Below, piece after piece: positions 27,993-39,206 of a DNA stretch of 64,000 bases. Origin of the DNA: an uncultured bacterium (GTDB lineage Bacteria; Krumholzibacteriota; Krumholzibacteriia; JACNKJ01). Within the stretch, counting starts at the first letter, position 1, and each line of letters opens with the position of its first letter. Location: assembly GCA_963695095.1 (NCBI GenBank), contig CAVOFT010000001.1, positions 2,496,001 to 2,560,000 of the forward strand. The letters are read 5' to 3'. A program made the position numbers and the translations under genes. Below the pieces are notes generated by a model. The model made no database searches. It had not been told where the DNA came from and worked only from the letters and a program-made list of their open reading frames with translations.

Positions 27993-28937
27993 TCAGGATC
28001 GCGGCGGCTCGGGCTCCCCGGCGCCGCCCTGCCCGGCGGCGAGCGCGGCGCGCAGGTGGCCACCAACTGCTGCCAGCCGCGCCTCCGCCGCCGTGCGCGA
28101 ACAGGCGCCGAGCTGCATCAGGAGGGCGGTCTTCACGCTGCCGCCGGCGGCCTCGAGCAGGGCGGCGGCGGCCGCGTAGTCCAGGCCCGCCAGCTCCATC
28201 AGCAGCCCGCGGCCGCGCTCGACCAGCTTGGCGCTGGTCGCCGTGAGGTCCACCATCCGGTTGCCGTAGATCTTGCCGGCCAGCACCCAGGCCGCGGTGC
28301 TGATCATGTTCAGCACCAGCTTTTGCGCCGTGCCCGCCTTCAGCCGCGTCGAACCGGCGAGGGCCTCGGGGCCCACGACGAGACGGATGGCCAGCTCGCC
28401 CGGCACGGCGACCGCGGGATTGGCGGTGATGAAGGCCGTGCGGCAGCCGCGGCGTAGCGCCTCCTCGACGGCGGCCACCGTGTAGGGCGTGCGGTGGCTG
28501 GCGCTGATGCCCACGACCGTGTCGGCCGGCCCCGGCGCGAGCGCCGCCAGATCCGCGGCGCCGGCGGCGGCATCGTCCTCCACGCCCTCGGCGCTGCGCG
28601 CGAGGCTGGGCGCGCCGCCGGCGATGATGCCGACCACCTGCCAGGGCGCGGAGCCGAAGCTGGGCGGGCATTCGGCGGCGTCGAGCACGCCCAGACGGCC
28701 GCTGGTGCCGGCGCCGACGTAGAGGAGGCGCCCGCCGGCGGCAAAGCTGGCCGCGGCCATCTCGGCCACCTGGGCCACGGCCGGCAGGACCGCGGCCACC
28801 GCGGCGGCGACCTGGGCATCTTCGGCGTTCATGGCGCGGACGATGCCCAGGGCATCCCTGCTGTCCAGATCGGCCGTCACGGGATTCGCCTGCTCGGTGA
28901 CGAGCCGGCGCAAGCTCTCCAGGAGTTCCTCGCCCAT
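27993..28937 (-). CDS. murQ: N-acetylmuramic acid 6-phosphate etherase
   Basis: TEQANP..DLD, GAGTSGRLGVLDAAECPPSFG, EGVED, VGPEALAGSTRLKAGTAQKLVLNMIST, GNRMVD; TGATG overlap with the upstream gene. Confidence 0.95.
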   Translation of the reverse strand: MGEELLESLRRLVTEQANPVTADLDSRDALGIVRAMNAEDAQVAAAVAAVLPAVAQVAEMAAASFAAGGRLLYVGAGTSGRLGVLDAAECPPSFGSAPWQVVGIIAGGAPSLARSAEGVEDDAAAGAADLAALAPGPADTVVGISASHRTPYTVAAVEEALRRGCRTAFITANPAVAVPGELAIRLVVGPEALAGSTRLKAGTAQKLVLNMISTAAWVLAGKIYGNRMVDLTATSAKLVERGRGLLMELAGLDYAAAAALLEAAGGSVKTALLMQLGACSRTAAEARLAAVGGHLRAALAAGQGGAGEPEPPRS

Positions 28938-31900
28938 CAGCGCATCCTCACGACCTTGTCCTCCCAGACGAGCTCGTCGCCGGCCAGATCGGTGAAGACC
29001 AGGCGCAGCAGGTAGACGCCATTGGCGACGAGGTCGCCCCGATCGTCGCGACCGTCCCAGCTCAGCCAGCGCGTCTCGCCTTCGCTCTGATCGCCCAGGC
29101 GCTGATGGTGGATGCGCCGTCCGCTGAGCGTGTAGATCGACAGGCTGCCCTCGCGCACGGCGCCCGTCAGGCTGTAGCGGAAGGTCGTGGCGACGCGGAA
29201 GGGATTGGGGAAGATGAGTCCCTGGAGCAGGCGGGCGCGGCCGTCCACCACCAGGCGGATGGCGTCGTAGTACTCGCCCTCGTAGCGCAACTCGAGGCTG
29301 TGTTCGCCGGCGCCCCAGGCGTAGTCGGCGTCCATGTGGAAGACGGTGGTGTCGGGGTTGTCCCCGGCGAAGACCGCGCCGACATCGGCGCGCAGGGCGC
29401 CGTCCTCCCAGAGCGCGAAGCCCTCGGGCTGGAAGGTCGGCGAGGGCACCCGAATGCGCAGGCGCAGGCGGCCGGTGCCGCGCACCCACTGGCCGTCACG
29501 CAGGCTGTCGCCGCTGGCGCTGAAGACGTCCACCCGCTTGGCCGCCAGCAGGGTGAGGCGGCCTTCGCGACCGGCCTGGTCCTGCGCCGTGAGGGCCAGG
29601 TAGTCGCGCTGGGGCGAATAGCCCGCCTTGGCCGTGAGCAGCCAGCCGCGCGTCCCCTGTCCCGCGGCGGCGAGCGTGCTGTCCAGCGGCACGGCCAGCG
29701 CGCTGAAGGTGGTGTCCGTCTCGGCGAGCAGGCTGTCCAGCAGGGCGGAGTCGGCGTGGATGGGCAGCCAGGCCGCCACGAGCTCGGCAGCGAGGGGGCC
29801 GAACTGGTCGGCGAGCCGTGGGGGCGTCTGGCGCGTCTCGTCGATGACGAGCGCCGTCAGGGCCAGCGTATCCCCCGGCACCTGAGTGGGGATGAAGTCG
29901 CCGTCCGCGAGCTCCCGGCGCCCCGCGAAGAGGCGCAGGCGCGGCGGCGAGCGATCGATGCGGGTCAGCGGGTCGCCGAGCAGGTTGTAGCGATAGCTCG
30001 AGATGTACTGGCCGTAGCGCAGCTCGCTGGCGAGCTGCAAGGTGCCCAGCCGCCAGTCGGCGGCGGCGCCCGGCGCCGGGGCGGTGGAGAAGAGGAGCCG
30101 GATCAGCTGCCGCTCCAGCTCGATGTTGGGGAAGAGGTACTCGTAGCCCTCGCTCGCGTAGCTGGCCACGGCGCCCCTGCCGCCCGGCAGGAAGAGCAGC
30201 TTCTCACCCATGCAGTCGCCTGCGGCCACGCTGCCCTCGTTGTGCGTGGCGAAGGTGTTGCCATGGCAGCCGAAGAGCGCCCAGACGAAGGGCTTGCCCG
30301 CGTTGTTCAGCCGCAAGTGGTCGTCGGCCCCGAAGTTGGTCTTGAAGTACTCCTCGTGACCGAGCTGATTGCGGTTGGCGTGGCTCTGCACGCTGATGAA
30401 TCCCCAGCCCCGGCTGAGCGAGTCGGTGAACACCGCCGAGAGGATGGGGCGAAGGTTGCTCTGCACGTAGGCGAGCTGCGCGTCCGGGTGCTCGGCGAAC
30501 CAGGGATCCGTGAGCGCCGACAGGTAGAGGGGCCGGGGGCGGAAGTCGCGGGTCAGGTTCTCGGTCTCGACATAGGCCCGCAGCTCCTCCTGGCCGATCT
30601 CGAACTGCAGTTCGTGCTGCTTGCACACGAAGGGCGCGTAGTAGTCTTCCCAGACCCAGCAATCGTCGGCGGCGTGGAGGAAGTCCCCCCGCCAGTCGCC
30701 GCTGCAAGCGCCCGGTCCGCTGTAGGTTTCGTAGCATTCGATCTTGTCGAGCAGGGTCGTCAGCTCGGTGCTGCTGCCCACGGGCAGGCGCCCCACGAGG
30801 AGGGCCGGCCAGGCGTTCGCGCTGAACTTGGCCACCCACTCCTCGATGGCGACCAGCTCGTAGGAGCCGAGCACGTCCTCCTGGCGCAGGGTGACGGGAA
30901 TGAAGTTCGGCATGGCGAAGCTGTTGACCGTGCGCGCGTCCTTGTTGCCATCCCCGACGAGCAGCAAGGCCGCCGTCCCCCACTGCTGGTAGGCGAAGCG
31001 CGCGGCGCTCCGCAGGGGCAGGTTGCCGCGGACGCCGCCGCCGAAGGCGTCCCAGACCGTTTCGCTGCCGAGGAGCCGCACGCGATAGCCCTGCGTCTCG
31101 CGCCAGTCCGCCCAGCGCTGCATGCCGGCCAGGAAGTCCTCGTGGCAGATGGCCAGGACGTCGCAGGGGCCGGTCTCATCGAGCAGGGCGAGCGGGGCCG
31201 CGGCCGCCAGCGCCGGCGCGCGCAGCACGCTCTCGTCGGCCAGGAGCCAGCGCTCGTCGCCGGCGAGCTCGTCGCGGAGGGCAAGCTGATAGTCGCCGGC
31301 ATTGCCGCTCTGATTCGCGGCCGCGAGGAGCAAGCGCACCGGCGGCGTCCCGGCGGGGCCCAGGCGCAAGAGCTGCCAGCCCGGCCAGGGGCCGGACAGG
31401 CCGCTCACCCTGAGCTCGGCCGCTCCGCTCAGACCCTCGGCGTCGAAGGCCAGCGAGTCCTGGCTGGCGACGTAGCGCGAGCGATAGCTAAGCTCCCAAT
31501 CCTGCATCACGGCCGTCCACACCGTATTGCGCCGCACGCGCAGGCTGTTGTCCCCGTCGGCGAGAGCGCCGGCAGGCACGGTGGCGCTGTAGTCGATGGC
31601 CTGCGCGAGGCTGAAGATGCACTGGGGCAGGGCAGTGCTGCCGCCGCCGTTGACGATCTCCACGTCGAAGACCCGCGCCGTGGTCGTGTTGTGCGTGCCC
31701 TGGAAGTGCAGCTTCAGCGTGGCCTCGCTGCCCGCCAGGATGCCGGGGCTGGCCAGGGGCAGGGTCAGCGTGAAGTTCTGGGCATGGGCCGGTTGCGCGA
31801 AGTAGTAGAGGTTCTCCCGCCAGGTCTCGCTGGCGCCGTCGTAGAGCAGGGAGGGCGGATTCGCTAGGAAGAAGCTCTCGCCCCAGGCGGCGCGGCGGCG

Positions 31901-33049
31901 CAGGAAGTCCGACGGCAGCGACCAGCCCCCGCCCTCGCTCCAGGCGACCTCGCTGGCCATCTCGCTGACGAGAGCCGGCGCGCGGCCGGCGAAGTAGGCC
32001 GCCGCGCGGCCGTAGGCCTCGAGGGCGTCGGGGCTGTCCTCGGCGTGGCGCAGGCGGCTGCCGATGAAGACGAGGGTGTCGTCGGCATCGAGCAAGGCAT
32101 CGCCGTCGCGGTCGAGGAAGTAGCGGGGCTCGGGAATCTGCGTGAACTCGGGCTCGCCGGCCGGACTCCAGGCGAAGCGCTGGCGCCAGATGGCGATCTC
32201 GGCCAGCGGCGTGCCCAGGCCGATGTCCCAGGCCGCGAGCGCGGCGCCGCTCACGCCGTGAAGACCATCGGTGGTGGTGAGCAGCTTCAGGCTCGGCTGC
32301 GCACTGCCTGCGCGCGGCCCGCGGGGCGATGCGGCGGGCAGGCGGCGCGCCCAGCCGCCGGCCGCCTCGGCATTGAGCAAGGCGCTCGCATAGACGGGCG
32401 CGAAGAGCGGATCCGGCGTTCGCAGGGCCTCGCCGGCTGCGGCGCGTTCGGCCTCCCCGACACCCGGCCGAAAGCTGAGCGTGACGCGCAAGGCGCTGGC
32501 CAGGCGCAAGCCGCGCGCGGGATCCCAGCCCACCGGCTCGACGATGAGCTCCTGCACCCAGAGATCGCGGAGCTGGCGCCGGGCGCCGAGGCGAACCCCC
32601 AGCGGATAGCTCTCGCCAAAGGCGGCCGGATCGCGCAGGAGCTGCTCCAGGGGCGGCGCGCCGTCGGCGGGGCCCGCAGTCAGGGTCGGGAAGGGCAGCG
32701 GCTCGCCGGCCAGGGCCTCGCTCCCCAGGAGCTGCCAGCTGAGCCGCGCCACGCTACCCGGCGGCAGGGCCACCTGACCGCGCCAGCGCGGGAGCAGGGG
32801 CGCCCCCGAGGCGCTCGGTGTCTCGGCGATGGCGCTCTCGAGGCCGCAGCCGGGCAAGGCGAGCAGGAGCCCCTCATCGGTGGCCCGGATTTCATCCGCC
32901 GTGAAGCGGAACTCCAGGCTGAGGCCGGCGGCATCGCTGGCCAGCAGCCGGCTCGCCGGCGGCAGGCCGCCTTGAGCGCCGGCGACAGCGGGCAGGACCA
33001 GCGCCAGGCCGGCCGCGGCGCAGGCAATGAGCAGTGTGCGAAGCTGCAC
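28937..33049 (-). CDS. Large secreted C25 family (gingipain/PorU-like) cysteine peptidase with C-terminal FlgD-Ig/T9SS-like domain
   Basis: Signal peptide after GTG 33049 (GGAGG RBS); propeptide-like GAPLLP; C25 hallmarks LLLVGDG, VGRLPV, SHAN (His), FGC (Cys), YNLLGDP; tail FPNPF..TTFRYSL..IYTLSGR..WDGRDDRGDLVANGVYL. Confidence 0.85.
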   Translation of the reverse strand: MQLRTLLIACAAAGLALVLPAVAGAQGGLPPASRLLASDAAGLSLEFRFTADEIRATDEGLLLALPGCGLESAIAETPSASGAPLLPRWRGQVALPPGSVARLSWQLLGSEALAGEPLPFPTLTAGPADGAPPLEQLLRDPAAFGESYPLGVRLGARRQLRDLWVQELIVEPVGWDPARGLRLASALRVTLSFRPGVGEAERAAAGEALRTPDPLFAPVYASALLNAEAAGGWARRLPAASPRGPRAGSAQPSLKLLTTTDGLHGVSGAALAAWDIGLGTPLAEIAIWRQRFAWSPAGEPEFTQIPEPRYFLDRDGDALLDADDTLVFIGSRLRHAEDSPDALEAYGRAAAYFAGRAPALVSEMASEVAWSEGGGWSLPSDFLRRRAAWGESFFLANPPSLLYDGASETWRENLYYFAQPAHAQNFTLTLPLASPGILAGSEATLKLHFQGTHNTTTARVFDVEIVNGGGSTALPQCIFSLAQAIDYSATVPAGALADGDNSLRVRRNTVWTAVMQDWELSYRSRYVASQDSLAFDAEGLSGAAELRVSGLSGPWPGWQLLRLGPAGTPPVRLLLAAANQSGNAGDYQLALRDELAGDERWLLADESVLRAPALAAAAPLALLDETGPCDVLAICHEDFLAGMQRWADWRETQGYRVRLLGSETVWDAFGGGVRGNLPLRSAARFAYQQWGTAALLLVGDGNKDARTVNSFAMPNFIPVTLRQEDVLGSYELVAIEEWVAKFSANAWPALLVGRLPVGSSTELTTLLDKIECYETYSGPGACSGDWRGDFLHAADDCWVWEDYYAPFVCKQHELQFEIGQEELRAYVETENLTRDFRPRPLYLSALTDPWFAEHPDAQLAYVQSNLRPILSAVFTDSLSRGWGFISVQSHANRNQLGHEEYFKTNFGADDHLRLNNAGKPFVWALFGCHGNTFATHNEGSVAAGDCMGEKLLFLPGGRGAVASYASEGYEYLFPNIELERQLIRLLFSTAPAPGAAADWRLGTLQLASELRYGQYISSYRYNLLGDPLTRIDRSPPRLRLFAGRRELADGDFIPTQVPGDTLALTALVIDETRQTPPRLADQFGPLAAELVAAWLPIHADSALLDSLLAETDTTFSALAVPLDSTLAAAGQGTRGWLLTAKAGYSPQRDYLALTAQDQAGREGRLTLLAAKRVDVFSASGDSLRDGQWVRGTGRLRLRIRVPSPTFQPEGFALWEDGALRADVGAVFAGDNPDTTVFHMDADYAWGAGEHSLELRYEGEYYDAIRLVVDGRARLLQGLIFPNPFRVATTFRYSLTGAVREGSLSIYTLSGRRIHHQRLGDQSEGETRWLSWDGRDDRGDLVANGVYLLRLVFTDLAGDELVWEDKVVRMR

Positions 33050-33255
33050 GGATCCCTCCGGTCGGGGTGCGGCTGAAGGATCGCATCCAGCAGGGATGGC
33101 AGGCCGTGGGCGCCCAGGGATGCCGAAAGCTAGCATCGCGGCCGGGCGCTGTCCAGGCGCGGCGGTCGCCTGGAGAGAAGAAACGGCCCTCCCCGGCCCG
33201 CAGCAGCGGGGCAGGGAAGGCCATTGAGGTGATCCCGCAGTCGTCAGGAACGAAG

Positions 33256-33825
33256 CTAGTACAGGGCCTTGATCGAACCCCAGTTGCTCGCTTCGACACT
33301 CGTCTCGCAGGGACAATCGCCCGTGCAGTTGAAGGTGAAGTTCCAGCCATCGACGATATGCTCATCGAAAGTCGTCGCATCGACGATGATCACACCCAGG
33401 AGATTCGGCGGGTCGCCCTTGGCGATCGTCATCGTGTAGTCGCTACCTACCCAGGCGCCCAGAGGCAAGAACTCCACGTAGCCGAGCTGGAACACGCCGC
33501 TCGCCAGGTAGGGAGTCCAGGCGAGAGCCAGGTCGACCGTGATGTCGCCGATGGCCAGGGTGGTGGTCCAGTGCGGGGTGATGATGCCTCCTGCGGCCGG
33601 CCAGTTCGTCACCTTGAATTCCACGGCACTCACGCCGAGAATCTCCGCAGGATCCGCATAGCCCACGAAGTAGACGCTCACCGACACGTAGGGCGTGCTC
33701 ATGTCCGCGACGCAGTCGGTCATCGCCTGATCGTTGAACATGCCGATGTAGCTGGAAGCCTGGGCGGACGTGCCCGCGGCAACGAGCGCCAGAAGTGCAA
33801 GTAAGATGCGCATTTTCTTCATCAT
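33256..33825 (-). CDS. Secreted ~190-aa beta-rich protein, paralog 3, C-terminal WGSIKALY
   Basis: Sec signal ending AQA; motifs shared with the neighbours (IGxF, AxEF, TPxWxTTLxIG, LALAF/W, FNC..CxC); AGGAGG RBS. Confidence 0.85.
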   Translation of the reverse strand: MMKKMRILLALLALVAAGTSAQASSYIGMFNDQAMTDCVADMSTPYVSVSVYFVGYADPAEILGVSAVEFKVTNWPAAGGIITPHWTTTLAIGDITVDLALAWTPYLASGVFQLGYVEFLPLGAWVGSDYTMTIAKGDPPNLLGVIIVDATTFDEHIVDGWNFTFNCTGDCPCETSVEASNWGSIKALY

Positions 33826-33889
33826 GACCCTCCTGCGGGTACCTCGGATAGATGGACAGTCATCACCGGAGTGCGGCCTTAGCGCGGGT

Positions 33890-33919
33890 AAACTAACACC
33901 CGGTTTTTCTGAGTGTCAA
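33890..33919 (-). promoter_or_regulatory. Putative sigma-70 promoter for 33256..33825
   Basis: TTGACA, 18 nt, TAGTTT with TGn extension. Confidence 0.55.
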
Positions 33920-33983
33920 CAGAAAGGGGAGCGCGGCCTCGCGGAAATCGGCGGCCGCGCAGCGGTAAGCCGCCGCAAATGAA

Positions 33984-34011
33984 GCGACCGCCGGCCGAAG
34001 CCGGCGGTCGC
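33984..34011 (-). terminator. Intrinsic terminator after 34039..34614
   Basis: Perfect 12-bp stem GCGACCGCCGGC, TTCG loop, then TTCATTT on the minus strand. Confidence 0.75.
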
Positions 34012-34038
34012 AATCGAAGACCCAGTTAACGATGCAGC

Positions 34039-34614
34039 CTAGTACAGAGCCTTGATCTGGCCCCAGGTGGCATCCTCGGTCGCGATGGTCGGCTGGCAAT
34101 TGCAGCCATACTCCAGGGCGCCCGTGCAGTTGAAGGTGAAGAAGTGGTCGGGCTCGCAGTCCCACTCGATGTAGTCCGTGTCGACCACGACCAGGCAGTT
34201 GCAATCGTTGCCGGGCATGATCGTCATGCGGAAGTCCGCACCCAGGTCGGCCAGCGCCAGGAACTGGAGCGTGCCCAGCAAGGCGACGGGGCCGGGGAGG
34301 GGCGGCGTGAAGGCCAGCGCCAGATCATGACCCATGGTACCGATCACGAGCGTCGTGTTCCACGTGGGGGTGATGATCGCGGCCGCGGGGCCGGGGAGGT
34401 TGTCGATGCGGAACTCGGCAGCCGTGATCGCAGGAATGTCGGTCTCCGGCAGGACCGCGAAGACATAGACATTCATCGGCACGAACGGCGTCAGGTCCGC
34501 CTCGCACAGCACGGCCGTGTCATCGGCGTACAGGCCGATGAAGGGCTGGCTCTGCGCGGCGGCAACACTGCTCATGGCGACCAGGAGCAGAAGAGCGGCC
34601 ATCAATTTCTTCAT
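34039..34614 (-). CDS. Secreted ~190-aa beta-rich protein, paralog 2, C-terminal WGQIKALY
   Basis: Signal MKKLMAALLLLVAMSSVAAA; AAGGAG RBS; clear similarity to both neighbours. Confidence 0.87.
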   Translation of the reverse strand: MKKLMAALLLLVAMSSVAAAQSQPFIGLYADDTAVLCEADLTPFVPMNVYVFAVLPETDIPAITAAEFRIDNLPGPAAAIITPTWNTTLVIGTMGHDLALAFTPPLPGPVALLGTLQFLALADLGADFRMTIMPGNDCNCLVVVDTDYIEWDCEPDHFFTFNCTGALEYGCNCQPTIATEDATWGQIKALY

Positions 34615-34828
34615 GTTGCAACTCCTTGAGATGTTTTAGAGAGTGGTGACAAGCCGAAGCTTGGTACCCATTGCCCAGTCTAGAGCCTGAGCCGCGCTCT
34701 CCGAACCCTGCTTGCCAGCCGGAGACGTCTCCAAGTACTCGGCCGGCATTCTGGGCGGGGTCGCCGGTAGGCCGACGACCCCTTTCAACCGCAAGTCGAA
34801 ACTAGTACAGAGCCTTGATCTGGCCCCA
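34039..34828. repeat. 27-nt identical direct repeat at 34039-34065 and 34802-34828 encoding WGQIKALY*; variant copy at 33256-33282
   Basis: ctagtacagagccttgatctggcccca occurs twice; ctagtacagggccttgatcgaacccca occurs in the third paralog. Confidence 0.9.
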
Positions 34829-35392
34829 AGCAGCCTCCTCGGCCGCGATGGTGGCCTCGCACTGGCAGGCACCATTGGGACCACCCACAACACAGTTGAT
34901 GATCATGCGCCAACCCTCGGCCGGAACCTCGGACGCGGTCTCGGCATCCACGACCACCAGGTTGCCGGCGCCCGAGGGCACGACTTCCATCACGAAGTCG
35001 GCGGCAGGAGGCACCTGACCACCGATGTAGGCGATGCTGCCCAGGTAGGCCAGGGGCGCCTCCAGGGGCGTCGTGAAGGCCAGCGCCACGCCGTCGGGCG
35101 TCATGATGTTGCCGATGACCAGGGTGGTGTTCCAGGCCGGGGTCGCGGCGAGAGCGCCGGTAGCCGCCTGGGTGACACCCGTGGCACCGAACTCGCAGGC
35201 GCTCATCGTGGGCACGCTGGGCTCGAGCAGGGCGACGAAGTACACGGTGACGGAGGCGTAGGGCGTGGTCCAGGCCTTCGAGCAGGTAAGCGCACCCTGC
35301 TCACCGAAGATCCCGATCACGTTGGCGGCACTCGCAGCACTGGCCATCAGGACCAGGCTCAGCGCCAAAGCAGCGATCACACTCTTCTTCAT
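34802..35392 (-). CDS. Secreted ~195-aa beta-rich protein, paralog 1, C-terminal WGQIKALY
   Basis: Signal MKKSVIAALALSLVLMASAASA; GAGGAG RBS; shared motifs. Confidence 0.87.
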   Translation of the reverse strand: MKKSVIAALALSLVLMASAASAANVIGIFGEQGALTCSKAWTTPYASVTVYFVALLEPSVPTMSACEFGATGVTQAATGALAATPAWNTTLVIGNIMTPDGVALAFTTPLEAPLAYLGSIAYIGGQVPPAADFVMEVVPSGAGNLVVVDAETASEVPAEGWRMIINCVVGGPNGACQCEATIAAEEAAWGQIKALY

Positions 35393-35507
35393 TTGGCGAA
35401 CTCCTCTACGTTGTTGATGCCGACTGGTGAAAAAGCTGTAACGCCAATTGAATTCGTTCGCAGCTCACACTCTGTTGAGCCCGAGTCCAGCATTCGCTGG
35501 GCCCGGT

Positions 35508-35532
35508 GTGCCCCGCGGCATCCGCGGGGCAC
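35508..35532 (-). terminator. Stem-loop downstream of the dockerin-like gene (terminator or mRNA-stabilising hairpin)
   Basis: GTGCCCCGCGG-3 nt-CCGCGGGGCAC perfect 11-bp inverted repeat; no clear U-tract. Confidence 0.45.
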
Positions 35533-35551
35533 GATCTGGACCAACGTGCGC

Positions 35552-36158
35552 CTAGGGGCAGCTGCTCACGTTGAAGAACCCAGCGAAGATACCGAAGTCC
35601 GCAACGGTCACGTTCGGCGAGCCGACGCTCTCGTTGTAGTTCGCGCAGTTGCCATCGCCCTGGAAGAAGCCGGCGAAGAGACCGAAGTCAGCGACGGTCA
35701 CGGTGCCGCTACCGTTCAGGTCGGGGCTGTTGACGCTCAGGGTCAGGTCGGCGATGACGTTGCCCACCGCAACCACGTTCATGCTGATGTTCGCGCACTG
35801 GGCGCCATTCACCACACCGCCGCGGGGCGTGCCCGTGAAGGTCGTGTGACCGGGGTCGGGCGCGAAGGTCGAGCTATCGGCGATGACGCCGCCCGCGCAC
35901 CAGACGACGAGGGGATCCTCGAGCCAGATGTCGGAGGCGATGATCTCGACGGGGTTGTTGCCCGAGTCGTTCACACTACACATCGATCGTGCGGTTGACA
36001 GGAACCACGAAGCTGTCCGCGCCGCCGGGCGCGATCGTCATGATACCGGGCGTGGCGATCGTCGCGGAGCTATTCGCGGGATCGACGATGCCGGCATTGG
36101 CGTTGGTGACCAGAAGGGCCAGCGCGGCCATCAGCACGAGAATCTTTCTGCTAGTCAT
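35552..36158 (-). CDS. Secreted ~200-aa protein with C-terminal dockerin-like duplicated repeat; one frameshift near 35976
   Basis: Signal MTSRKILVLMAALALLVTNANA; removing one G from GTGTAGTGTGAAC restores DVYVNDSG and joins ORFs 35976..36170 and 35552..35983; repeats DLNGSGTVTVADFGLFAGFF and NYNESVGSPNVTVADFGIFAGFF. Confidence 0.75.
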
Positions 36159-36366
36159 CGGCAGAAGCACCTCCTACAAAGGGTAGCATTGAGCGACAGT
36201 CCCGACTGGCAAGGACAAGAGCGATCGCTCGGTTGTATGTAAGCAAGGGCACTACTTGCAGGGGCTTTAAGGATACCACCTCCGTCCCCAGTTACACAAG
36301 CCACAGTTGCGTTGCCACTCAGGAGCGGCTCCACCTCTGTGGGGAATCTTCCTGCGGTGGCTTGTG

Positions 36367-36396
36367 AGTATATCAGAGCTGGAAAATCGCTGTCAA
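36367..36396 (-). promoter_or_regulatory. Near-consensus sigma-70 promoter for the secreted-protein cluster
   Basis: TTGACA, 18 nt, TATACT with TGn extended -10. Confidence 0.7.
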
Positions 36397-36508
36397 TCGG
36401 CATCCGCGCCTGACGCGAAATACTAACGGCATCTTCCCGAACCACTTACATGCCCCTTGCGGAAGGATCCGCTCGCAGGGACCGCGGCTGGGAAGGTGGG
36501 GAGGGGGG

Positions 36509-36581
36509 TGGGCGAAACAGGGCTCGAACCTGTGACCCCCTGCGTGTAAGGCAGATGCTCTCCCAACTGAGCTATTCGCCC
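36509..36581 (-). tRNA. tRNA-Val(TAC), CCA not encoded
   Basis: GGGCGAATAGCTCAGTTGGGAGAGCATCTGCCTTACACGCAGGGGGTCACAGGTTCGAGCCCTGTTTCGCCCA: 7-bp acceptor stem, D-arm, anticodon loop CTTACAC, TTCGA T-loop; followed by CCC. Confidence 0.97.
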
Positions 36582-36781
36582 CGGGACGGTCGGCCCCCTC
36601 CTGACTCGGAGTGGCCGAGCCTGAAGAGCGCCGCCGGAATGAGCAGGCAGTAGCCGGCCACGAGGAGAAGGGGCGCCAGGGTCATGCTGCCCATGCCCAG
36701 GGCGACATAGCCCAGGGCGATGGCGATCACGCCCGCCGCGAAGAGCCCCTTGAAACCCGCTAGACGAAGGCTGGCAGCCAC
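36572..36781 (-). CDS. Small two-TM membrane protein (DUF3098-like)
   Basis: AGGAGG RBS, GTG start; GVIAIALGYVAL and SMTLAPLLLVAGYCLLIP helices; stop lies inside the tRNA. Confidence 0.7.
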   Translation of the reverse strand: MAASLRLAGFKGLFAAGVIAIALGYVALGMGSMTLAPLLLVAGYCLLIPAALFRLGHSESGGGRPSRGE

Positions 36782-36830
36782 GGTCCCCTCCTGATTGCAG
36801 TCGCCACCGAGTCCCGCTCGGACGAGGAAG

Positions 36831-37688
36831 CTACGGATTCGAGTCCGGCTCTGTCAAGCTGCTGCGGCTGAGCCGGCTCAAGCTCCCCGAGTGGAAGGGC
36901 CGCAAGTCCAGGGACACCGAGCCGAAGCCCAGCGCCCGCAGCCCCTCGTCGACGGAGGCGGCCAGGCCGGGGGCCGCCAGGCGCCCCCACTCCTCGCCCC
37001 CCAGCTCGATGCGGGCGAGCAGGCCGTGATGGCGCACGCGATAGTCGCGGAAGCCGAGATCGCGCAGGAGCTTTTCGGCCTGGCCCAGCTGGTCGAGCTT
37101 CTCGGCCGTCACTTCGCTGAAATGGGGAATGCGGCTGGCCAGACAGGCCCGCGCCGGCCGGTCCCAGATCGACAGGCCGCGCTCCCGGGCGAGGCGACGG
37201 ATGTCGGCCTTCTCCAGGCCGGCCTCGGCCAGCGGCGCTCGCACCCGGTAGCGGCGGGCCGCGTCGGCCCCCGGTCGCTCCTCGCCGAGGTCGCTGCGAT
37301 TGCCCCCGTAGACGAGGGTCTGGAAAGCCTCGGCCGCGGCCAGGGCCTCCATCTGCTGGAAGAGCTCCTGCTTGCAGAAGAAGCAGCGATCGGGGGCGTT
37401 CGCGCGGTAGTCGGCGTTCTCGAGTTCGCGGGTGGCCAGCACGCGCACGGGCACGCCCCACTCGGCCGCGAAGACGAGGGCCTCGTCCCGCTCCCAGTCG
37501 GCCAGGGAGGCCGAATCGGCCAGCACGGCCGTCAAGTCCCCGCCCAGGACTTCGTGAGCGAGGACGGCCAGGTAGCCGGAGTCCACGCCACCCGAGTAGG
37601 CGAGCAGGGTGCGGCCGCCATCGGCCAGGATGCTCCGCAAGCGGGCTTCCTTGGCGCGCAGCGTGTCGTCGAGGGCAGGCAGTTCCAT
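36831..37688 (-). CDS. larE: ATP-dependent sulfur transferase, LarE family (PP-loop)
   Basis: AYSGGVDS, DRCFFCK, RPG, KADIR, PARACLASRIP, RVRHHG..ARIE, SGSL. Confidence 0.88.
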   Translation of the reverse strand: MELPALDDTLRAKEARLRSILADGGRTLLAYSGGVDSGYLAVLAHEVLGGDLTAVLADSASLADWERDEALVFAAEWGVPVRVLATRELENADYRANAPDRCFFCKQELFQQMEALAAAEAFQTLVYGGNRSDLGEERPGADAARRYRVRAPLAEAGLEKADIRRLARERGLSIWDRPARACLASRIPHFSEVTAEKLDQLGQAEKLLRDLGFRDYRVRHHGLLARIELGGEEWGRLAAPGLAASVDEGLRALGFGSVSLDLRPFHSGSLSRLSRSSLTEPDSNP

Positions 37689-37731
37689 GCCCCTAGACTA
37701 GCAAGAAGCGCGCGCGCCCGCCAGCACCGGC

Positions 37732-38754
37732 CTAGGAGCCGCCGCGCAGACGGCGCAGCGTCGCCACATTGCGCTTGTGCTCGGCGAAGGTGGCCGCGAA
37801 ACGGTGGCCGCCGCTGCCGTCGGCGACGAAGAAGAGGCTGCGGTCCTCGGGATCGGCGGCCAGGGACGCCGCCAGGCTGGCCCGGCCGGGGCTGCAGATG
37901 GGCCCCGGCGGCAGGCCCTTGTAGCGATAGGTGTTGTAGGGCGAGTCCACGCGCAGGTCGCGGTAGTAGACGCGCAGGCGCCGCTCGCCGAGGGCATAGA
38001 GGACCGTGGGGTCGGCTTCCAGGCGCATGCCCCGAGCGAGGCGGTTCAGGTAGACCCGCGCGATGCGCGGCCGGTCCTCGTCGAGATAGGCCTCGGCTTC
38101 CACGATGGAGGCCAGGGTGGTCCACTGCAGGGCATCCAGGGACCAGCCGGGTGGGGCCGCCTTGCGCAGTTCATCCAGCGTGCCGGCGAAGGCGTCGAGC
38201 AGGGTGGCGATCACCTCGCCGGCGCTCGTCGGGTACTCGAAGGCATAGGTGTCCGGCATCAGGAAGCCCTCGAGGTCCGGCCGCCCGGCGAGGAAGTCGT
38301 GAGCGGGCCAGCGCTGGGGATCGCGCACGCGCTGCGCCAGCTCGAGGGAATCGAGCTCGAGCTGGCCGGCGATGGCCGCCACCGCCTCGTCCAGCCAGAG
38401 CCCTTCGCGCAGGGTGAGGCGCAGCTTCTCGGTGCGGCCCAGGCGCAGTTGCTCGGCCAGGGCCGCCGGGCTGCTCGGCCGGCGAAAGCGGTAGCGGCCG
38501 GCGCGCAGCTCGTCCGCCTCGCCACGCCGGCGCAAGCCCCAGAGAAAGGCGCGCGGCGACTTGAGAACCCCGGCCGCGGCGAGCTGGGTGGCGATGGCCC
38601 GAGAGCTCGTTCCCGGCGCGATGATCACGAGAGTGTCGGCCGCCGCCTGCGGCGGCTCGCGCCGCCAGGCCCGCTCCAGGCCGGCGCCGAGGCCCAGGAG
38701 CAGCGCGAGGCCCACGAAGACAAAGGTCGCAAGCCCGAAGCGAAGCCGAATCAT
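37732..38754 (-). CDS. mltG: Endolytic murein transglycosylase
   Basis: N-terminal TM, LEGFLMPDTY, LASIVEAE, NRL..GMRLEADPTVLY, SPYNTY..GLPPGPICSPG. Confidence 0.95.
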   Translation of the reverse strand: MIRLRFGLATFVFVGLALLLGLGAGLERAWRREPPQAAADTLVIIAPGTSSRAIATQLAAAGVLKSPRAFLWGLRRRGEADELRAGRYRFRRPSSPAALAEQLRLGRTEKLRLTLREGLWLDEAVAAIAGQLELDSLELAQRVRDPQRWPAHDFLAGRPDLEGFLMPDTYAFEYPTSAGEVIATLLDAFAGTLDELRKAAPPGWSLDALQWTTLASIVEAEAYLDEDRPRIARVYLNRLARGMRLEADPTVLYALGERRLRVYYRDLRVDSPYNTYRYKGLPPGPICSPGRASLAASLAADPEDRSLFFVADGSGGHRFAATFAEHKRNVATLRRLRGGS

Positions 38755-39206
38755 GGTGCACTGTCCCCGCTGGCAGTCCCGGAGCCGCGCTGGGCGTCCA
38801 ACCAGGACTGCAGGATGAAGACCGCCGCGAGGCGATCCCAGTCGTGGCGCTCGCCGGCGGGAAAGGCCCGCCGGGCCGCCTTGGTCGTGAGCCGCTCGTC
38901 CCAGAGGGTGACGGGCAGGCCGAACTCCTCGCCGAGCCGCGCGGCGAGGCGGCGGGCGAGGGCGGCGGCCTCGCCTTCGCTGCCATCGAGATGGCGCGGC
39001 AGGCCCACGACGAGCTGCGCCACGGCGTAGTCCGCAATCAGTCGGCGCAGCAGGGCGAAGAAGCCGCCTCGCCCGCGCCGGAAGCTCTCCAGGCCCTGGG
39101 CCGTCAGGCCGAGCGCATCGCTGACGGCGAGCCCCACGCGCACAGTGCCCGGATCGATGCCCAAGACGCGCGGCCGCTCGGCGAGCGGCGCCGGTTCAGT
39201 GGGCAT
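38751..39206 (-). CDS. ruvX: Holliday junction resolvase-like / pre-16S rRNA nuclease (YqgF)
   Basis: LGIDPG..RVGLAVSD, VVGLP, WDERLTT, AAVFILQSWLD. Confidence 0.93.
   Translation of the reverse strand: MPTEPAPLAERPRVLGIDPGTVRVGLAVSDALGLTAQGLESFRRGRGGFFALLRRLIADYAVAQLVVGLPRHLDGSEGEAAALARRLAARLGEEFGLPVTLWDERLTTKAARRAFPAGERHDWDRLAAVFILQSWLDAQRGSGTASGDSAP

Follow-up and report, generated by a model that had tools for sequence, protein, structure and literature searches.

The 64-kb stretch of DNA analyzed here (the window) comes from the genome of an uncultured member of the candidate phylum Krumholzibacteriota and carries, within 28937..36396 of its minus strand, five co-oriented genes that we call A to E. 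Three of them encode small paralogous proteins that share a C-terminal tag. Our preferred reading, to which we give a little less than an even chance, is that this tag is a lineage-wide C-terminal sorting signal and that the operon likely provides the machinery by which tagged proteins are processed or attached. The operon is favored for this role because no other cluster always goes with tagged genes, and this one encodes a PorU-type enzyme. Sortase-like systems have been recognized by the same kind of pattern, a C-terminal signal with an enzyme gene nearby. The five genes are listed below; the signal peptides of their products were judged by eye only.

35976..36158, minus strand: gene A, first piece, 60 residues, with the signal peptide and the first strands of a predicted immunoglobulin (Ig)-like domain; a TAG at 35976 ends the frame (one-base frameshift)
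35552..35974, minus strand: gene A, second piece in the +1 frame, 140 residues, with the remainder of the Ig-like domain and a predicted dockerin module, ending in CP
34802..35392, minus strand: gene B, 196 residues, with a signal peptide, a predicted cohesin-fold domain and the tail EEAAWGQIKALY
34039..34614, minus strand: gene C, 191 residues, with a signal peptide, a predicted cohesin-fold domain (residues 25-165) and the flexible tail EDATWGQIKALY
33256..33825, minus strand: gene D, 189 residues, with a signal peptide, a predicted cohesin-fold paralogue and the tail EASNWGSIKALY
28937..33049, minus strand: gene E, a C25 cysteine peptidase of 1370 residues, with a likely GTG start at 33049

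The tag comprises about 16 residues with the consensus TTA[TV]E[ED]SS[WF][SG]x[IV]K[SA]LY. In the window's own genome (G000, with its contig C1), we counted it in six-frame open reading frames (ORFs) of 60 residues or more: a loose motif occurs 46 times, 35 times at the very C-terminus and 42 times no more than 5 residues away from it. Its carriers are unrelated to one another and include beta-helix, cupredoxin and cohesin-like proteins as well as unknown families. Signal peptides were visible by eye in 11 of the 14 start regions inspected (13 tagged ORFs and one untagged dockerin paralogue). Among 28 beta-helix paralogue ORFs, regular expressions identified eight that end in the tag, eight that end in a type IX-type end and none with both, and a few more of each ending could be seen by eye. 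B, C and D, together with 10 other tagged proteins, gave no match to Por_Secre_tail or FlgD_ig, and no Pfam or NCBIfam model covers the tag.

Across the phylum, the core motif was found in 190 of 201 genomes, with up to 45 occurrences per genome, and a reversed control in only 2 of 201, once each. Stricter patterns that demand a Tyr followed by the stop codon recovered 41 and 45 of the 201 genomes; they undercount the tag because other loci have trailing and variant residues. In other genera, R, Q, E or K follows the Tyr or the W-G pair is replaced, with 0-6 trailing residues in all. A scan of all species genomes returned at least 133 matches, and among the matches listed 128 of 133 have a stop within 6 codons. 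The genomes concerned are titled Krumholzibacteriia, Eisenbacteria, Latescibacterota, Fibrobacteraceae and UBP1, these titles being submitters' labels of unchecked placement.

The tag is thus bound to the C-terminus, where it sits on a flexible linker; it occurs on unrelated secreted carriers, takes the place of the type IX domain on some paralogues and has a lineage-restricted distribution. Because of these features, we infer that it serves the lineage as a general C-terminal signal for sorting or anchoring. The original prediction had taken the tail as a mark of the paralogues of this locus and had seen in the locus a surface scaffold with its own processing enzyme. The first of these ideas gives way to a genome-wide (42 frames) and lineage-wide distribution. 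As about 42 unrelated secreted proteins carry the tail, the locus can hardly be taken for a private scaffold with a tag of its own either. An outer-membrane beta-signal or a strict PDZ-ligand reading of the ...LY-COOH end was also considered; it loses weight, as the motif may be trailed by 0-6 residues in other lineages.

Two tagged loci elsewhere deserve mention. Locus L016 (G093:C53:3075-11696) consists of thirteen tandem genes of about 210 residues each, spaced by about 650 bp, all of which end in the tag; no C25 homologue was detected at E 1e-5 in this 16-kb locus, in which about 3 kb lie downstream of the array up to the contig end. At L031:8555-9766 (G000:C1:2297555-2298766), a Mutator-family transposase gene adjoins a tagged beta-helix gene.

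Gene E encodes the enzyme on which the proposal centers. Its GTG start is preceded by a GGAGGG site, and the public gene call has the same length. The product consists of a signal peptide, an N-terminal region of about 630 residues, the catalytic domain and a FlgD_ig-type type IX C-terminal domain. The description of this protein as a C25 peptidase of ~1370 residues with a type IX-like tail was sound: Peptidase_C25 (PF01364) matches with 149.6 bits (E 1.8e-43; cut-off 23 bits) and FlgD_ig with an E value of 4.1e-9. The catalytic His lies in SVQSHANRN and the Cys in FGCHGN; both are kept in gene E and in 13 of 13 aligned orthologues, and both align with those of PorU. PorU (6za2) is the only sequence match of gene E in the PDB, and the C-terminal domain aligns to it; a phmmer search of the PDB with the catalytic domain alone gave chance matches only. 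The PorU of the window's own genome aligns with gene E over the catalytic region and the C-terminal domain.

It had been suggested that gene E is PorU itself, the sortase of the type IX system, with the tail as a type IX-like signal that it cleaves. The C25 domain, the type IX C-terminal domain and the weak matches to PorU models speak for this. However, the cut-off of the PorU model NF033707 is 420 bits, of which gene E reaches only 85.7 (47.9 in the genome scan); with NF052324 (PorU_rel_Nterm, the PorU2 type), which has a cut-off of 450, it reaches 39.1 and 31.4 bits. The true PorU of the genome lies at C1:2160338-2163721; it scores 438.4 bits with NF033707 and adjoins the best PorV-like match (112.3 bits), which is the usual arrangement, PorU being encoded beside the PorV outer-membrane shuttle. 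Moreover, the tail has about 16 residues and gave no match to a type IX domain model. We consider this reading very improbable. Since gene E falls far below the cut-off and a true PorU is encoded elsewhere, gene E is not PorU; by sequence comparison, it appears as a PorU paralogue of a separate clade that is itself type IX cargo. Seven PorV-like matches were found in the genome, none of them inside the window and all below the family cut-off. A SprA homologue is present. The genome (3.6 Mb) contains 13 C25 peptidase genes, gene E among them, and 148 FlgD_ig matches, so that its set of type IX cargo is very large in relation to its size.

The order of an A-like gene, one to three tagged small genes and the C25 gene is held in six families of the phylum, so that the C25 linkage for which the original prediction had proposed a gene-neighborhood survey was indeed found to be conserved. 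In family f1, to which the window's genome belongs, the order is kept in 5 of 5 loci with a C25 identity of 44-72%. Among f4 loci, it is kept in 2 of 5 that were selected for their tandem tags and in 4 of 4 that were selected through the C25 orthologue; the small tagged proteins of this family are a divergent branch, linked by hhalign at a probability of 96.6% when signal peptides are part of the alignment. In families f3, f5, f7 and f8, the order is kept in 7 of 8 loci, and no A-like or cohesin-like match was found at the remaining one (L039). The C25 orthologue is single-copy in 88 of 91 f4 genomes and present in 11 of 11 f1 genomes, some of which, including that of the window, have a second C25 paralogue. 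With the N-terminal region of gene E as the query, 64 of 201 genomes were recovered, with strong matches only in f1; this number reflects query sensitivity, because a family-matched query gives the 88 of 91 in f4.

Outside the sampled set, five tag-bearing genomes each encode a C25 protein that is closer to gene E (163-278 bits) than to the PorU of the window's genome (51-100 bits; for L188, the match to PorU covered the C-terminal domain only), and in 2 of the 5 tagged genes lie directly upstream of the C25 gene. A genome titled Fibrobacteraceae contains the whole operon with the flanks usual for the phylum. In one genome titled Eisenbacteria, an A-like gene and two tagged genes are located about 20 kb from the C25 homologue. 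We conclude that the operon is a core, vertically inherited element of the candidate phylum.

B, C and D are 36-40% identical to one another. As stated originally, the three paralogues share the C-terminal tag, their termini being WGQIKALY or WGSIKALY. No Pfam or NCBIfam model matches them. Their family comprises 70 homologues, of which the few with organism names are labeled Krumholzibacteriota or Latescibacteria, and the Atlas clusters point to the same phylum, in agreement with the lineage named originally. In an AlphaFold2 model of gene C (predicted local distance difference test, pLDDT, 87.9), the core of residues 25-165 is confident, and the tail is of low confidence, detached from the fold, with a short predicted helix at its end. 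The top 10 Foldseek matches of this model are all cohesins, as are the best 17 of a VIA-align comparison with 48,161 chains (Z 12.9 down to 8.4), led by 2vo8_A (Z 12.9, root-mean-square deviation (rmsd) 2.6 over 123 residues). The structures 2vo8 and 2xdh are non-cellulosomal cohesins. The paralogues are therefore beta-rich, as had been noted, and more exactly of the cohesin fold, a nine-stranded jelly roll, according to both Foldseek and VIA-align. Going by the model, B, C and D are single-module cohesin-fold proteins. The assignment rests on the fold, because the Pfam Cohesin model (PF00963) matches none of the family members searched; for B, C and D themselves, it gave no match at E up to 0.1. 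One lead at the sequence level was a nearby Atlas cluster with PF00963 in 16% of its members.

A reading of B, C and D as type V (FimA/Mfa-type) pilins was rejected, as they have no lipobox (no Cys was seen by eye in the signal-peptide cleavage region) and pilin chains reach Z 6-7 against 10-13 for cohesins. A complex prediction for B, C, D and the second piece of A scored 0.02 against a mark of 0.32; with four chains, a truncated Ig-like domain and no controls, it was unlike the calibration of the tool and is no evidence either way.

The own genome encodes about 14 cohesin-like modules, several of them in large proteins that end in type IX C-terminal (FlgD_ig) domains. Outside the window, at C1:3378326-3387298 (minus strand), large ORFs alternate cohesin-like and LDFG-type beta-sandwich domains and have FlgD_ig ends; they are scaffoldin-like in appearance and broken into several frames in the assembly. 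Two more cohesin-like proteins (C1:231075-232010 and C1:2329009-2329578) have the variant tails FSAIKACY and FSSVKALY, so the W-G pair is not obligatory even within one genome.

The first gene of the operon had been described as encoding a protein with a duplicated Ca2+-loop repeat. The repeat stands and belongs to a predicted dockerin module; in this assembly, however, the gene is not a single open frame, as the TAG at 35976 splits it. Orthologues of A have one unbroken frame of 204-210 residues in 4 of 4 syntenic relatives, and all three public-run contigs that cross the frameshift site (two from RNA libraries and one from a DNA run, 95-97% alike) lack one base at 35976-35978. Therefore, the break of gene A in the window is an assembly error or a recent mutation. 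Apparent single-base frame changes also split or truncate the second C25 paralogue (G000:C1:1280339-1283432) and two tagged beta-helix fragments (G000:C1:2961889-2962176 and C1:3169264-3169704). That several genes are split in this way suggests assembly indel errors rather than many pseudogenes.

None of the 65 homologues of gene A has a name. A structure model of the orthologue from the same genus (pLDDT 91.8) contains an invasin-type Ig-like domain (Z about 7) and a C-terminal module with two helices. This module superposes on 2ozn_B, the dockerin of NagH, with Z 5.0 and an rmsd of 1.6 for 51 residues. The window copy has two Ca-loop/helix repeats, DLNGSG.VTVADFG.FA and NYNES...VTVADFGIFA. 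These segments are conserved across 32 sequences and represent the two tandem loop-and-helix units, each of about 22 residues, by which a dockerin is recognized. The Pfam Dockerin_1 model (PF00404) matches 11 of the 32 family members at E up to 1 (best 3.4e-6), and one family member has a precomputed PF00404 match; the window copy gave no match at E up to 0.1, and the profile found nothing in the whole genome at E up to 0.01. On the modeled structure, we assign the gene A product as an Ig-like plus dockerin-module protein. The dockerin idea of the original prediction thereby holds, and as B, C and D have the cohesin fold, the notion of a cohesin-dockerin pair fits better than first thought. 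A second Ig-plus-dockerin paralogue, about 40% identical to gene A, is encoded at G000:C1:1551241-1551930 among unrelated metabolic genes, with no cohesin-like neighbor.

In the mechanism that we propose, tagged proteins would be exported by Sec, and the tag, placed on a flexible linker behind the conserved Cys-rich end of the folded domain, would be recognized at the envelope. Gene E, held at the surface through its own C-terminal domain, would then process or attach the tagged proteins as PorU treats cargo with a C-terminal domain, and A together with B, C and D may form an accompanying attachment complex via cohesin-dockerin contacts. Both the action of gene E on the tag and the binding of A to B, C or D are what we infer for the central steps. 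A more specific version, possible but somewhat unlikely in our estimate, is that a second PorU-type transpeptidase and an A/B/C/D attachment complex fix cargo without a type IX C-terminal domain to the surface. This would make a second cargo class with a second sortase, an undescribed pathway of Krumholzibacteriota and their neighbors.

Several observations weigh against the proposed link between tag and operon. The tagged proteins are without a type IX C-terminal domain, and their passage across the outer membrane to a surface-held enzyme is unaccounted for. A scan of the neighborhoods of 11 other tagged genes showed unrelated housekeeping genes and no neighbor in common. Three Eisenbacteria-titled genomes, which have 5-28 tag matches apiece, lack tagged genes ahead of the C25 homologue, and the cohesin-like profile gave at most one weak match in these three genomes. 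From genus to genus, the tag differs in its trailing residues and even in the W-G pair. The window assembly has a broken gene A, and Pfam Cohesin matches 0 of 33 B/C/D family members at E up to 1. Finally, nearly all genomes of the phylum have the tag, the operon and a member of the C25 clade. Profiling of the tag against the C25 clade, a further check put forward originally, showed as much, but a co-occurrence profile in which everything is present cannot discriminate.

Some of these points fit a reading in which the operon is a self-contained cohesin-dockerin surface protease complex, similar to protease-adhesin complexes, and the tag is served by unrelated machinery elsewhere (for example, a periplasmic tail-recognizing protease, a secretion component or an outer-membrane receptor), with B, C and D as mere clients. 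Most tagged genes are unlinked to any C25 gene, and C25 peptidases are ordinary cargo here, given 13 genes, most of them with type IX domains. Moreover, the three Eisenbacteria-titled genomes lose the C25 adjacency, and in one of them the pairing of A-like and tagged genes persists. We nevertheless regard this reading as unlikely: only the C25 clade of gene E is conserved in single copy and syntenic with tagged genes over six families, and in the PDB search gene E resembles PorU, a transpeptidase, more than any gingipain.

Alternatively, the tag could be a miniature docking peptide that binds cohesin-fold modules non-covalently. Under this scheme, large type IX-anchored multi-cohesin proteins would be the platform for tagged enzymes and for B, C and D as tagged single-cohesin adaptors, and gene E would be just one member of the assembly. 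The genome offers about 14 cohesin-like modules for this, including those of the large FlgD_ig-ended ORFs at C1:3378326-3387298. It has only 2 dockerin-like modules, so that most cohesin-like modules are without a dockerin partner, and it has 42 tags. The flexible tail with its short predicted helix at the end would also suit a docking peptide. However, Eisenbacteria-titled genomes with 25 and 28 tag matches have 0 or 1 weak cohesin-like match, and the tagged proteins would still need an exit from the periplasm, which makes this explanation quite unlikely in our view. We thus keep, tentatively, the reading of the tag as a sorting signal handled by the operon.

Short C-terminal sorting signals with dedicated enzymes are known from the LPXTG/sortase, PEP-CTERM/exosortase and GlyGly-CTERM/rhombosortase pairs. 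The Krumholzibacteriota tag resembles them in being a lineage-restricted signal on dozens of unrelated secreted proteins, and in that the gene of the presumed enzyme lies beside a few presumed substrates while the rest are scattered. In contrast to these signals, it is not followed by a transmembrane helix or a basic stretch but ends the protein or nearly so, and its candidate enzyme is an extracellular C25 peptidase rather than a membrane enzyme. With the type A C-terminal domain of type IX cargo (Por_Secre_tail/FlgD_ig), the tag shares its C-terminal position, and within one family some paralogues end in the domain and others in the tag; the domain, however, has about 80 residues, whereas the tag has about 16, no predicted fold and no model match.

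Gene E resembles PorU (NF033707; 6za2) in its length of about 1400 residues, its signal peptide, its long N-terminal region, its C25 catalytic domain, in which His and Cys align with those of PorU, and the type IX-type C-terminal domain that it retains. It differs in forming a separate clade that coexists with a true PorU and in its location beside dockerin- and cohesin-like genes instead of a PorV-like gene. Its presumed substrates would carry the 16-residue tag, whereas those of PorU carry an Ig-like domain of about 80 residues. As in cohesin-dockerin systems, the predicted cohesin fold extends over the whole domain (Z 10-13), a two-repeat dockerin is encoded in the same operon, and a sorting-type signal follows the cohesin. 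Single-cohesin anchoring proteins with a cell-wall sorting signal are known, among them the sortase-anchored scaffoldins of ruminococci. In contrast to such systems, there is no Pfam Cohesin match here, the host is a diderm, the genome has two dockerins, and the locus contains no glycoside hydrolases, the partner enzyme being a protease.

The original prediction had known of no described equivalent, and none was found in Pfam, NCBIfam or by full-text literature search. Among the papers listed by that search, none brought Krumholzibacteriota together with terms for C25, type IX secretion, cohesins or dockerins, and nothing on the tag was returned. Sortase, exosortase, rhombosortase and PorU are pairs of a C-terminal signal and an enzyme that organize bacterial surfaces, and they were first seen as patterns of this kind. 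The tag marks dozens of secreted proteins per genome across a whole candidate phylum. If gene E is its enzyme, type IX-style attachment would gain a second branch that operates without the C-terminal domain, and cohesin-dockerin modules would serve a diderm envelope outside cellulosomes. The reading is testable, as the tag is short, the catalytic dyad is clear and close relatives are represented in sediment metatranscriptome libraries.

Around the genes of the operon, the following features were identified:

36507-36581: tRNA-Val, upstream of the operon promoter
36367..36396, minus strand: sigma-70-type promoter TTGACA-18-TATACT with a TG extension, 11 of 12 consensus positions
33984..34011, minus strand: strong 12-bp GC-rich hairpin 3' of gene C, terminator-like or attenuating

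The near-consensus promoter and the strong ribosome-binding sites described originally for the five co-oriented genes were confirmed. The promoter is the sole promoter-like site in the 8 kb of 28700-36700, for which shuffled sequences average 0.5 sites, and AGGAGG-type ribosome sites were seen by eye upstream of all five starts. Intergenic hairpins, also described originally, were recovered as the strong one after gene C and as further GC-rich inverted repeats, visible by eye, 3' of genes A and B. The lower guanine-plus-cytosine (GC) content reported for the four small genes was likewise reproduced: it is 0.59-0.66 for 33000-36499, whereas the C25 gene and the flanking DNA have 0.67-0.77.

Two sediment libraries yielded assembled metatranscriptome contigs (90-99% alike) that extend over parts of genes A, B and C, to which one of the runs adds D; a single contig of 1204 nt spans A into B. 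These contigs come from relatives and are silent on transcript ends, expression level and the strain's own frameshift. They lend weak support to transcription of the operon, because RNA libraries can contain DNA and the contigs are not from the strain itself.

Low GC content beside a tRNA gene could indicate a mobile island. We rejected this reading, since different families have kept both the locus and its flanks. Upstream of the operon (window 36507-39206) lie the tRNA-Val, a small membrane protein gene, and mltG-like and ruvX-like genes. The tRNA/mltG-like/ruvX-like flank was constant at every locus inspected, including those of distant families of the phylum, and it is partly kept in a genome titled Eisenbacteria.

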